Origin: a virus
Taxonomy: Duplodnaviria > Heunggongvirae > Uroviricota > Caudoviricetes
Reading direction: 5' to 3' (one strand)
Length of the DNA: 48,200 bases
IMG/VR virus record: IMGVR_UViG_2563366870_000003
In this document: positions 5,179-8,337 of the stretch, in pieces
How the letters are laid out: each line of letters begins with the position of its first letter
How positions within the stretch are numbered: position 1 is the first letter of the stretch
Position numbers and translations under genes: made by a program
The notes under the pieces: model-generated
What the model was told of the DNA's origin: nothing
The model's database searches: none
Seen by the model: only the letters and a program-made list of their open reading frames with translations

Positions 5179-5370
5179 TCATACCTGGTCTCTCTCATCT
5201 GCTTCTGCTTTCGCCACCATCATTTCCAGCTTTTGTGAAAGGGATGTGGCTAACGTATGAAATTCTTCGTCTGTTTCTACTGGTATTGGCACAAACCTGA
5301 CTCCAATTTGAGCAAGGCTATGTGCCATCTCAATACTCGTTCTTAACTCAACAGGAGATGCTTTGTGCAT
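5179..5370 (-). CDS. Lambda orf63-like small protein, 63 aa
   Basis: ORF track; ATG at 5368-5370; position and size match lambda orf63 between exo and ea22. Confidence 0.5.
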   Translation of the reverse strand: MHKASPVELRTSIEMAHSLAQIGVRFVPIPVETDEEFHTLATSLSQKLEMMVAKAEADERDQV

Positions 5371-5520
5371 ACCGCCTCCCGTTTATTATTTATCTTCTCA
5401 GCCAGCCGCTGTGCTTTCAGTGGATTTCTGATAACAGAAAGGCCGGGAAATACCCAGCCTTGTCAACGCCACGATGTTTGACCGTTATTTGCCATTTTCA
5501 TGCCCGCTAAGATACTTTCG

Positions 5521-6318
5521 TTACTGATGATGTCCGCTTTTCACCATTTCATCATCACTGATTGGCGTTGTGTTTTTGGTCAGCACTCCAGCTTTACGTT
5601 TCTCTTTTAACCGGTAACTCTCTCCTTTGATATTCAGCGTGGTTGAGTGATGTAGCAACCGATCCAGTATCGCTGTTGCCAGCACGTGATCTCCGAACAT
5701 TTCTCCCCAGTCTGCGAACCCTTTGTTTGACGTCAGTATGATGCTCGCTTTTTCATATCGACGGTTCAGTAGCCGGAAGAACAGGCTGGCTTCCTCTCTG
5801 TTCATCGGCAGATAGCCTATTTCATCCAGGATCAACACCCGGGCATAACTCAGTTGCTGCAGCTGACGCTCCAGCCGGTTTTCCTGTTTCGCTTTCATCA
5901 GTGTCGCGATCAGTCTGTCCAGTGGCATAAACAGTACCCGATGTCCCGCATCCACCGCTTTCACGCCAAGAGCTATGGCCAGATGAGTTTTTCCGACACC
6001 AGGAGGTCCCAGCAGGATCACGTTTTCGCTGCGCTCCACGAACGCCAGACCAGCCAGTTCCCGGACAACCTTACGGTCGATGCCCGGCTGGAAGGTAAAG
6101 TCGAACTGCTCCAGCGTTTTGACCCACGGCAGACGAGCCTGCTTCAGCCTGGACTCCATACCGCGCTGATGCCTGCCGTTCCATTCCTGCTGTAGCGCCA
6201 TGCACAGGAACTCCCGGTAGTTCAGCTCTTTTTTAGCTGCCTGTTCCAGCAGGCTTTCAACGTGATAACTCAGATGCTCCATTTTCAGGCGACTCAGCAG
6301 GACTTCCAGCTCATGCAT
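5521..6318 (-). CDS. istB: IS21-family IstB ATP-binding helper protein, 265 aa
   Basis: Walker A '[11 protein letters not shown]' and Walker B 'LILDEIG'; ATG at 6316-6318 overlapping istA stop. Confidence 0.9.
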
Positions 6319-7490
6319 CACAACAGCTCCTCATAGGCACTCAGTGGTCGATGTTCCACCTGACTGACCTGCTGCCAGAGCGGGGCGTGATGCTCCGGCA
6401 CTGTCTGCCAGCCAGACGATGCCGAACAGAGGCGATGTGAGGCCACCAGTTTCTCATTACTGTAGATCCGCAACTCGTCATCCAGCGATATTCGTATCGA
6501 TACCGGCTGACCACACAGCGCTTCGGGAACGCTGTAACGATTACCACCAACCTCGATATAGCTGTCCCGGGACACATGGCGGATGTCGAAGTAACTGGTA
6601 TCGAAGTCCGTATCCGGTAACGGCTGCAGATGTTCCTGCTCCAGCGCGAAGCGCTGTTCCGGCGTTTCTTTGAACTGGCGAAGTTCCCGTTTGTCAGCCA
6701 CATCGGCTATCCATTGCTCCAGTTGTTGATTAACATGAGTGAAGCTGTCGAACCTGCGGTACCGAACGAAGAAGTTCTCCTTGAGGTATTTCACCATCCG
6801 CTCAACCTTACCTTTTGTTCTGGCCCTGCGTGGACGGCATGCCCGTGGCAGGAAGTTATAGTGGTCGGCCAGCAACAGGAATCCGGAGTTGAACACGACT
6901 TTCCCGTTGTTATTCTTCAGCACCGCAGCCTTCTGGTTATCAACCAGCACCGTTTTCACACAACCACCGAAGTAGCGGAAGGCGCGAACCAGTGATTCGT
7001 AGGTATGCTCAGCATCCTGTTTTGGTGCGGCGAAGACATGGAAGCGGCGGGAGAACCCCAGCGTATTAACCGCAAAGTTAACTTTGCACCGTTGCCCGGC
7101 AACCTCCACCTCAACTTCGCCCCAGTCGTGCTGGAGCTGGTATCCAGGCTGAGTTTCGAAGCGAACTGTTCTTTTTGACGGACGCATTTTACGTTTGGGC
7201 TGGATGTAGTAACGCAGCATGGAACGTCCGCCCGTATAACCCATTGCCTTAATCTCCGCAAAGATAACCTCACTATTCCAGACATTCTCTGCCAGGCGCA
7301 TGTCGATGTAATCCATAAACGGTTTCAGCTTAACCATTTTGTGGCGGGTCTTTCTGGCTGGCGGTTCAGGGTATTTGAGGTAGCGTCTGACCGTCCGTTC
7401 AGAGCAACCAATCTGAGTCGCAATATCGACAATGTACGCGCCCTGCTGGCGCATTTGCTTTATCATGTAAAAGTCCTCTCTGCTCAGCAT
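6318..7490 (-). CDS. istA: IS21-family IstA transposase, 390 aa
   Basis: ORF track 390 aa; N-terminal HTH; DDE-type catalytic core; ATG at 7488-7490. Confidence 0.9.
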
Positions 7491-7656
7491 GTTGATGTCC
7501 TTTCTGGTGTGAGAACCTTAAGGAAACAACATGTTGGGTGGAGCGGACAATCCAAATGGTGAATTACCGTCTTATATCACTGGCGCTGACAGCCTCGCTT
7601 TGTAACGGAGTAGACGAAAGTGATCGCGCCTACCCGGATATTATCGTGAGGATGCG

Positions 7657-8337
7657 TCATCGCCATTGCTCCCCAAATACAAAACTAATTTCAGCCAGTG
7701 CCTCGTCCATTTTTTCGATGAACTCCGGCACCATCTCGTCAAAACTCGCCATGTACTTTTCATCCCGCTCAACCACGACATAATGCAGTCCTTCACGCTT
7801 CATACGCGGGTCATAGTTGGCAAAGTACCAGGCATCTTTTCGCGTCACCCACATGCTGTACTGCACCTGGGCCATGTAAGCCGATTTTATGGCCTCGAAA
7901 CCACCGAGCCGGAACTTCATGAAATCCCGGGAGGTAAACGGGCATTTCAGCTCAAGGCCGTTGCCGTCACTGCATAAACCATCGGGAGAGCAGGCGGTGC
8001 GCATACTTTCGTCGCGATAGATGATCGGGGATTCAGTAACATTCACGCCGGAAGTAAACTCAAACAGGGCTCTGGCGTCGTTCTCGTACTGTTTTCCCCA
8101 AGCCAGCGCCTTAGCGTTAACTTCCGGAGCCACACCGGTGCAAACCTCAGCAAGCAGGGTGTGGAAGTAGGACATTTTCATGTCAGGCCATTTCTTTCCG
8201 GAGCGGGGTTTTGCTATCACGTTGTGAACTTCTGAAGCGGTGATGACGCCGAGCCGTAATTTGTGCCATGCATCATCCCCCTGTTCGACAGCTCTCACGT
8301 CGATCCCGGTACGCTGCAGGATAATGTCCGGTGTCAT
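7657..8337 (-). CDS. exo: Lambda exonuclease (Red-alpha), 226 aa
   Basis: Sequence reads as near-identical to lambda Exo ([40 protein letters not shown]…) from memory; ATGA overlap with bet. Confidence 0.95.

Follow-up and report, generated by a model that had tools for sequence, protein, structure and literature searches.

The closest described counterpart of the element studied here is IS21 (= IS8) of the IncP-1alpha plasmids of the R68/RP4 group, represented by the copy on pBS228. A more distant one is IS5376 from Geobacillus stearothermophilus, the structurally studied element of the IS21 family. Ends in this family carry repeated motifs (L1/L2 and R1/R2), with a -10 box inside the left terminal inverted repeat (TIR), and the family is described as having a split promoter, that is, a weak promoter of its own whose -10 lies in the left TIR and whose -35 lies in the right TIR (PMC10122671).

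IS21-family elements land in temperate phages. IS21 is found in ninE of strain 582 and in the P2-like phage fiAA91-ss, and ISEc62, of the same family, is found in the pL operons of strains MS 198-1, F344, and AST217, where it is co-oriented with pL, as is the element described below. These cases concern other elements and/or other sites (after gam, inside gam, beside a TraR-like gene, in ninE, and between B and C), and none of them is in orf60a. For orf60a itself, the closest precedent is a set of engineered deletions in lambda and Phi24B (Dydecka et al. 2018), which showed that the gene is non-essential and that its loss leaves viable phages with more lysogens and delayed induction, more strongly so in Phi24B (PMC6213356; PMC8614690). 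Those were clean deletions of the gene that is lost here, whereas in the present case 2.1 kb with two genes have been added to the operon.

In the window, by which we mean the whole 48,200-nt stretch of DNA that was analysed, we are nearly certain that one intact IS21 transposed recently into codon 23 of orf60a in a lambda-like Escherichia coli prophage, with the consequences that we infer below. The features of the locus are collected in Table 1.

Table 1. Features of the interrupted orf60a region, in window coordinates
Feature	Coordinates	Strand	Remarks
orf63 (DUF1382)	5179..5370	-	first intact gene downstream of the insertion; own GGGAGG ribosome-binding site
orf60a 3' fragment	5343..5460	-	nt 66-183, codons 23-60 plus stop; start codon lost; PhiR57_1 annotates orf60a at the same coordinates
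Native hairpin and T-tract within orf60a	5429..5461	-	AGGCUGGG-UAUUU-CCCGGCCU, then UUCUGUUAUC; from terminator scans (window, lambda)
Target-site duplication, copy at right IS end	5457..5460		GCCT
IS21, complete	5461..7591	-	left (istA-proximal) end 7591, right end 5461
Right terminal inverted repeat	5461..5516	+	TGTCAACGCCACGATG...
istB, AAA+ helper ATPase	5521..6318	-	265 aa; ATG overlaps istA stop (TGATG)
istA, DDE transposase	6318..7490	-	390 aa; N-terminal HTH, rve core, Mu-transposase C-terminal-like domain
Left terminal inverted repeat	7536..7591	-	minus-strand reading TGTCAGCGCCAGTGATATAAG...; contains ATATAA, a -10-like hexamer
Target-site duplication, copy at left IS end	7592..7595		GCCT on +, AGGC on gene strand; orf60a nt 66-69
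orf60a 5' fragment	7592..7660	-	codons 1-23; runs into the IS, four further codons, then stop
exo, lambda exonuclease	7657..8337	-	226 aa; Pfam YqaJ; TGA overlaps orf60a ATG

Boundaries and identity of the element

The element measures exactly 2131 bp between its TG...CA ends, its first letters being TGTCAACGCCA and its last TGGCGCTGACA. The ends show inverted complementarity at 11 of the 12 outermost bases, the terminal motif TGTCA(A/G)CGCCA is present at either end, and copies of TG(T/C)CCGCT lie about 40 nt inward from both; within the left repeat, the end motif recurs internally (TGTCCGCTCCACC, IS positions 43 to 55). When the first 56 nt of the two ends were aligned with gaps, the score was 14, which none of 2000 shuffles attained (mean, -9.3; SD, 4.1), and thus the imperfect inverted repeat extends over about 50 bp. 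An earlier, sequence-only reading of this DNA had proposed a 2131-bp IS21-family element with imperfect terminal repeats and a GCCT direct repeat on both sides, and the boundaries, the repeat alignment, and the two GCCT copies located here bear this out. A 4-bp duplication is typical of IS21: all 10 of the other independent copies that we examined have the same ends and a duplication of this length (AGCC, CCCT, CCTG, TGCC, GCTG/CAGC, TCTT, ACGT, CTGC, and CTAT).

Judged by its sequence, the element is very probably IS21 proper and not just a member of the family, since it shares 2129 of 2131 nt with the IS21 adjoining aphA on the IncP-1alpha plasmid pBS228 (NC_008357, Pseudomonas aeruginosa) and since RefSeq (PGAP) labels these proteins "IS21-like element IS21 family." Length, ends, gene order, overlaps, and the 4-bp duplication are all common to the two copies. 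What sets the present one apart is its new site inside a prophage gene and the two point differences, each of which changes one amino acid per protein (R308 in IstA instead of W, and H263 in IstB instead of Q).

Both proteins are readily assigned. IstA matches the Pfam families rve, Mu-transpos_C_2, and HTH_23 and scores 284.9 bits against the NCBIfam model transpos_IS21 (cut-off, 160), and IstB matches Pfam IstB_IS21 (E = 2.5e-90), scores 301.9 bits against NCBIfam IS21_help_AAA (cut-off, 200), and carries a Walker A motif (GPPGVGKT, residues 104 to 111) and a Walker B motif (VLILDE, residues 161 to 166). Their genes are consecutive, istA before istB, as the IS21 family requires, and the two open reading frames make up 92% of the element. 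IstA aligns with that of IS5376 (PDB 8b4h, 8q4d) over 388 residues (E = 1.7e-80), and the DDE triad is conserved, with D122, D184, and E230 placed by the 8b4h alignment opposite D124, D187, and E233, the catalytic residues of IS5376 IstA (PMC10122671). The TIR architecture is likewise shared, both elements having end motifs that recur and a CA at the terminus, but the sequences are only distantly related, and IS5376 makes duplications of 5 bp (PMC10122671), compared to 4 bp for IS21.

The interrupted gene and its empty site

When the element and one copy of GCCT were removed, leaving 600 bp of each flank, the resulting 1200-bp reconstruction matched phages ev017 and PhiR57_1 (for the latter of which we found no literature) and prophages of CFT073, ABU 83972, and others at 100.0% identity from end to end. 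On the minus strand, joining 7660->7592 to 5456->5343 restores an open reading frame of 183 nt (60 codons plus stop) whose ATG overlaps the exo TGA as ATGA, in keeping with the 60-codon gene that had been proposed. Comparison with lambda orf60a (lambda 31169-31351) settles its identity, with 176 of 183 nt and 58 of 60 amino acids identical, and the product covers positions 1 to 60 of the 60-residue Pfam family DUF1317 (E = 2.2e-38). Within the exo-xis block, the gene comes first after exo and is followed by orf63, orf61, the TraR-like orf73, and ea22.

With 23 of 60 residues left, followed by four that the IS encodes, orf60a is probably a null allele in this prophage. Its loss should shift the phage slightly toward lysogeny and slow induction while not stopping growth, because the published deletion mutants behave in this way. 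The N and left operator region is intact, as are cI and the left operon, and all match PhiR57_1 at 100% identity. In the same prophage, IS629 interrupts cII. If the prophage runs collinear with PhiR57_1 past the window end, it would measure about 53.5 kb, more than the lambda packaging limit of roughly 51 kb, and particles able to form plaques should then be rare or lacking unless an IS is lost.

Promoters and hairpin at the insertion

Both istA and istB lie on the minus strand, as do exo, bet, gam, kil, cIII, and N, and the co-orientation with the early-left operon that had been noted from the letters alone therefore holds. Read from istA to istB, the element starts with TGTCAGCGCCAGTGATATAAG and ends with ...GGCGTTGACA, its outermost six bases at the right end, TTGACA, being an outward-facing -35 box. 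At a computed head-to-tail junction of two IS21 copies with a 3-bp spacer, this box would give TTGACA-17 nt-ATATAA. Hybrid promoters at the present junctions were considered and rejected: on the right, the outward TTGACA is followed at 16 to 18 nt by GGCCTT, GCCTTT, or CCTTTC, and on the left, AAGCGA stands 17 nt before the -10, none of these being promoter-like. A promoter scan likewise gave no minus-strand promoter-like site at either IS junction. Neither did we retain a structure hiding the istA start in read-through RNA: although the AUG region is base-paired in the leader fold, the energy of this fold is not exceptional (z = -1.0).

The hairpin within orf60a (-19 kcal/mol; z = -2.8) begins exactly at the insertion point, is intact just downstream of the IS, and is also present in lambda (at 31287-31265) and in all uninterrupted relatives. 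It is probably the lambda tL3 terminator, given the description of a "native terminator (tL3) after exo" (PMC8402550). The idea that IS21 prefers to insert at hairpins or terminators was rejected, in that 11 reconstituted target sites had z values from -1.8 to +1.4, and because these show no enrichment, the position of the insertion next to the hairpin looks like a coincidence.

By the usual cut-and-integrate pathway of IstA and IstB, IS21 entered codon 23 of orf60a, in the pL (early-left) operon, with a staggered cut leaving the 4-bp duplication. In the lysogen, where pL is repressed and the IS21 promoter would be weak (a -10 only, with a flank that lacks a -35), the element should be quiet. 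Upon induction, N-modified RNA polymerase from pL would pass from exo through istA and istB to orf63, orf61, ea22, xis, and int, and with this read-through, polarity would be small and expression of the IS21 transposase would rise for a short time. The insertion would bring no new outward promoter, and transcripts leaving the IS without antitermination would end at the native hairpin behind it.

Distribution and alternative explanations

The insertion was seen in one assembly only, GCA_000408085.1. Searches of 5426 complete E. coli genomes and of 50,697 phage records did not find it, three long matches in the former proving to be ISEc62 at other sites, and its exact junction did not turn up when IMG/VR, the GTDB representative genomes, and JGI metagenomes were scanned. 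As for the element itself, more than 1000 contigs encode an IstA of exactly this sequence, other genomes have identical 2131-bp copies at several differing sites, and the copies on pUTI89-like F plasmids (in a DUF1281 gene) and on E. coli chromosomes have 0 to 4 mismatches over 2131 bp, several samples having identical copies at this plasmid site. A plasmid-like scaffold of GCA_000408085.1 also has an IS21 at the DUF1281 site; it has the rare IstB H263 variant in common with the prophage copy and differs from it at three istA positions, in a draft that makes it uncertain how many other IS21 copies the strain has and exactly what their sequences are. Given these three differences, we did not name the plasmid-borne copy as the donor.

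That the sole source found is a scaffold-level assembly, from a strain with at least one further IS21 copy and with a neighbouring scaffold that has a gap-associated duplication around an IS21, would fit a misassembly placing a multicopy IS in orf60a. However, the 8.8 kb (8798 bp) around the IS in GCA_000408085.1 match the window with no mismatches and no gap, and a misjoin would yield neither a perfect 4-bp duplication at exact TG...CA ends nor a restorable frame, which makes an artefact extremely improbable. It is also very unlikely that the element is an old, decayed relic that is no longer mobile. The one amino acid by which each protein differs from the pBS228 copy could be read as such decay, but both reading frames are full length, the DDE and Walker A/B motifs are there, the ends and the duplication are intact, and the many contigs with the same IstA, together with the identical copies at several sites, would indicate an active lineage. 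The insertion is recent, to judge from its perfect duplication, its two intact IS genes, the near-identity of the element to many other copies, and flanks that match uninterrupted relatives at 100%.

The sequence-only reading had also pointed to some 2.1 kb of foreign DNA between exo and the downstream genes, which is confirmed, and to possible polarity, which is probably weak instead, because the pL transcript is N-antiterminated and a terminator scan predicted no intrinsic-terminator-like site inside the IS on the pL (minus) strand. A strongly polar insertion, which would keep pL transcription from xis and int and lock the prophage in the chromosome, would fit the position of the IS between pL and these genes, the short untranslated stretches at both IS ends, and the terminator-like hairpin directly after it. 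Yet that hairpin is native to lambda and to uninterrupted relatives, where N-modified polymerase passes it, the IS would add no terminator of its own, and translation of istA and istB over most of its length should limit the access of Rho. N antitermination suppresses the polarity of IS insertions in lambda, and strong polarity is, in our view, unlikely here. For non-N-modified transcripts, Rho-dependent polarity may arise in the untranslated gaps of about 80 nt before istA and about 150 nt after istB. Also to be weighed is a selected attenuation, in which the orf60a insertion and the IS629 in cII would have been retained for taming, through loss of a pro-lytic function, a prophage with useful cargo (sitABCD, found in relatives just past the window end), a scenario that we hold to be distinctly unlikely. 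Knocking out cII does not stabilise a lysogen once it is established, and the insertion, seen in a single assembly and absent from the genomes, phage records, and contig collections searched, gives no sign of spread or recurrence. The scenario would draw on the second IS disrupting another regulatory gene of the same prophage and on orf60a deletions that delay induction and raise host survival, although in lambda itself the effect of orf60a loss is minor (PMC6213356).

Recent transposition of an intact IS21 into orf60a, which is the explanation that we prefer, is an ordinary event of an already known kind. For annotation, the gain is that the element in the window can be labelled IS21 and orf60a an insertion-disrupted pseudogene, with little beyond that; two regulatory genes of one prophage, orf60a and cII, have been hit by an IS. 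The three ISEc62 insertions in other pL operons are all co-oriented with pL, and with the present one these four cases are compatible with an orientation bias, yet they provide no evidence for one. It can be suggested, tentatively and as a rather unlikely extension, that transposition is coupled to induction, with pL de-repression and N antitermination flooding the cell with istAB mRNA during phage replication and packaging; if so, prophage induction would trigger IS21 hopping, and the phage would be its vehicle. More generally, studies of the exo-xis region could use the prophage as a natural knockout of orf60a, and the prophage may also offer a simple system for asking if an IS with no strong promoter of its own is switched on by transcription entering from an early phage promoter.

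IS21 in orf60a

The window is a lambda-like prophage, written rightwards from int (1-1143, minus strand) and collinear with Escherichia phage PhiR57_1 (PV340572), with which it shares two blocks at 100% identity (window 1-5460 = PhiR57_1 1-5460; window 7596-14702 = PhiR57_1 5461-12567), separated in the window by 2135 extra bases. Reading of the junctions placed here the element, its size and its GCCT direct repeats (see the table) just as a sequence-only reading had proposed. The imperfect terminal repeats proposed with them are also real: of the first 12 terminal bases 11 are inverted-complementary, and gapped alignment gives an imperfect inverted repeat of ~50 bp, whose score of 14 (shuffle mean -9.3, sd 4.1) was equaled by none of 2000 shuffles. 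The end motif recurs as TG(T/C)CCGCT ~40 nt inside each end, which agrees with the L1/L2 and R1/R2 repeat architecture of IS21-family ends (PMC10122671).

Both genes run with the early-left (pL) operon, as previously read, and the istB ATG overlaps the istA stop (TGATG). In the istA product, Pfam finds rve, Mu-transpos_C_2 and an HTH domain, and NCBIfam recognises an 'IS21 family transposase' (284.9 bits; cut-off, 160); its alignment with the transposase of IS5376 (PDB 8b4h; E = 1.7e-80) spans 388 residues and places D122, D184 and E230 on the catalytic residues D124, D187 and E233. For the istB product the matches are Pfam IstB_IS21 (E = 2.5e-90) and, at 301.9 bits (cut-off 200), NCBIfam 'IS21-like element helper ATPase IstB'; its Walker A motif reads GPPGVGKT and its Walker B motif VLILDE. 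Every testable defining feature of the IS21 family is present in the element. Grouped with IstB at 90% identity (cluster of P0021 and P0026) are proteins of 127-131 aa carrying the NCBI name 'antitermination protein, partial'; they may be misnamed fragments, or else fusion ORFs created where IS21 entered phage Q-like genes.

When the element and one GCCT copy were removed and 600 bp from each side joined, the resulting 1200 bp matched phages ev017 and PhiR57_1 from end to end at 100.0% identity, and matched equally well the prophages in CFT073, ABU 83972, clone D i2 and others, which rules out a chance 4-bp repeat and proves the insertion. At least 80% of this site is present in 2983 of 5426 complete E. 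coli genomes. Joining also restores the predicted orf60a frame, whose ATG overlaps the exo TGA (ATGA); it covers Pfam DUF1317 end to end (E = 2.2e-38) and is identical to lambda orf60a (lambda 31169-31351) at 176 of 183 nucleotides and 58 of 60 amino acids. The duplication is nt 66-69 of the gene (lambda 31286-31283); orf60a now codes for 23 native residues plus CQRQ before a stop, and its 3' part has no start codon. What the prophage carries is a simple IS21 insertion: the element is intact, lies in the orientation of the pL operon and has destroyed orf60a; the sequence-only reading was correct and well described.

Features of the insertion, its surroundings and the plasmid-like scaffold of assembly GCA_000408085.1 (window positions unless stated)
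Feature	Position	Strand	Details
IS21 element	5461-7591	minus (genes)	exactly 2131 bp; start TGTCAACGCCA, end TGGCGCTGACA
Target duplication GCCT	5457-5460 and 7592-7595		directly outside both element ends
istA	6318-7490	minus	390-aa ORF
istB	5521-6318	minus	265-aa ORF
Restored orf60a	7660->7592 joined to 5456->5343	minus	60 codons
orf63 (DUF1382)	5179-5370		next gene after orf60a; own GGGAGG ribosome-binding site kept
Hairpin and T-tract inside orf60a	5429-5461	minus	AGGCUGGG-UAUUU-CCCGGCCU; lambda 31255-31287
IS629 (IS3 family)	14703-16012		1310 bp; co-oriented with pR operon, upstream of O and P
IS21 stretches on plasmid scaffold KE136865.1	811-1670 and 2728-4858 (scaffold positions)		partial; full copy

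Identity and distribution of the element

A plasmid search with the 2131 bp matched 3779 records, the top matches rounding to 100% identity and being annotated 'IS21-like element IS21 family transposase / helper ATPase IstB'. As comparison copy we used the IS21 adjoining aphA in pBS228, an IncP-1alpha plasmid from Pseudomonas aeruginosa; this copy has the same length and ends, also lies in a 4-bp duplication (ACGT), and shows 2 differences over 2131 positions, which change IstA (R308W) and IstB (H263Q). Because of this agreement the family assignment can be refined: judged against the pBS228 copy, the element is IS21 itself. Ten other independent IS21 copies, lying among other places inside ninE, vat, traI and the DUF1281 gene that pUTI89-like plasmids carry, beside an HNH gene and in phage fiAA91-ss, have identical ends and a 4-bp duplication in every case; the GCCT repeat is therefore the signature expected of IS21.

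The junction of this insertion occurs in none of the 5426 complete E. coli genomes and is absent from phage records, in which a full IS21 occurs solely in the P2-like fiAA91-ss and at a different site; nor did scans for the exact junction find a match in IMG/VR, GTDB representative genomes or JGI metagenomes. The insertion is present in NCBI assembly GCA_000408085.1, found via an IstB variant, whose scaffold KE136868.1 matches window 1521-10318 over 8798 bp with 0 mismatches. On a plasmid-like scaffold of 72.6 kb in this assembly, IS21 sits in the DUF1281 gene, the site that is also occupied in pUTI89, and copies identical to that of the window were found at this plasmid site in other samples. 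A hop of IS21 from plasmid to prophage is only plausible, because the draft plasmid copy (KE136865.1) differs from the prophage copy at three istA positions. On this scaffold a duplicated stretch, partial IS21 included, flanks a 10-N gap and has the appearance of an artefact of scaffolding.

Three long matches in complete E. coli genomes proved to be ISEc62, another IS21-family element, elsewhere in lambdoid pL operons (L002 4122-6088, L003 3739-5705 and L004 1559-3525): after gam, inside gam and beside a TraR-like gene. All three are oriented with the operon, like the window IS21; four such cases are too few for claiming an orientation bias.

The surrounding prophage

The IS629 copy, 99.1% identical to annotated IS629 in Stx phages (orfA, 108 aa; orfB, 296 aa), interrupts cII after codon 37 and is flanked by an ATT duplication (14700-14702 and 16013-16015). 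Positions 22910-24147 and 26540-34342, by location the lysis-gene and head-gene regions of the PhiR57_1 annotation, have no high-identity (megablast) match to that phage, the remainder being 96-100% identical; this is ordinary lambdoid mosaicism. In relatives (L001 44298-49482; L024-L033) the tail-fibre genes are followed by sitABCD and ~5 kb, then by chromosomal genes of the DUF1398, MlrA-like, BLUF-EAL and YmgB families. If collinear with them beyond the window end (48200), the prophage would be ~53.5 kb with both IS elements, above the usual lambda packaging limit.

Consequences for lysogeny and pL transcription

The orf60a gene is conserved and non-essential; when it is deleted, more cells survive infection, more lysogens form, and induction comes later and is weaker, an effect strong in Phi24B and minor in lambda (PMC6213356; PMC8614690). 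Given these phenotypes, its loss here would be expected to cause a mild shift away from lytic development.

The element does sit between exo and the downstream genes, where possible polarity had been suggested, but this polarity is probably small: within the IS the pL strand has no predicted terminator-like site, and N, the nutL-side sequences and cI are intact, so that N-modified polymerase should read from exo through istAB into orf63, orf61, ea22, xis and int. The only promoter elements that IS21 has are a -10 box in its left end and, forming the final six bases of the right end, an outward-facing -35 (TTGACA), a split arrangement described for the family (PMC10122671). A promoter scan and flank reading found the missing half supplied at neither junction; as long as pL is repressed by cI, IS21 should thus hardly be expressed, and no new outward promoter should arise.

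The insertion point is the first base (5' foot) of the orf60a hairpin (-19 kcal/mol, z = -2.8), which the IS leaves unbroken directly beyond its downstream end. The hairpin is probably tL3, since lambda has it at 31287-31265, with no other terminator-like site on that strand from exo to orf63, and pKD46 is described with 'the native terminator (tL3) after exo' (PMC8402550). A preference of IS21 for folding targets might account for the position; as 11 reconstituted sites showed no general tendency (z -1.8 to +1.4), we treat it as chance. Between orf61 and the TraR-like gene there is a strong terminator-like hairpin with a T-run (AGGGAGCUACAGGCUCCUUUUUUAUUAUU; window 4845-4870, minus), also conserved in lambda (30673-30691).

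Lambdoid prophages commonly carry IS insertions, and this prophage has IS629 in cII too; the IS21 insertion in orf60a is an ordinary event, of a known kind and involving a known element, and is of low interest. An effect more notable than polarity is predicted upon induction, when pL would transiently drive transposase gene expression. That prophage induction activates IS21 and leads to its phage-borne spread seems to us unlikely; if true, such induction-coupled activation and spread would be the least ordinary reading of this insertion, and of modest interest.
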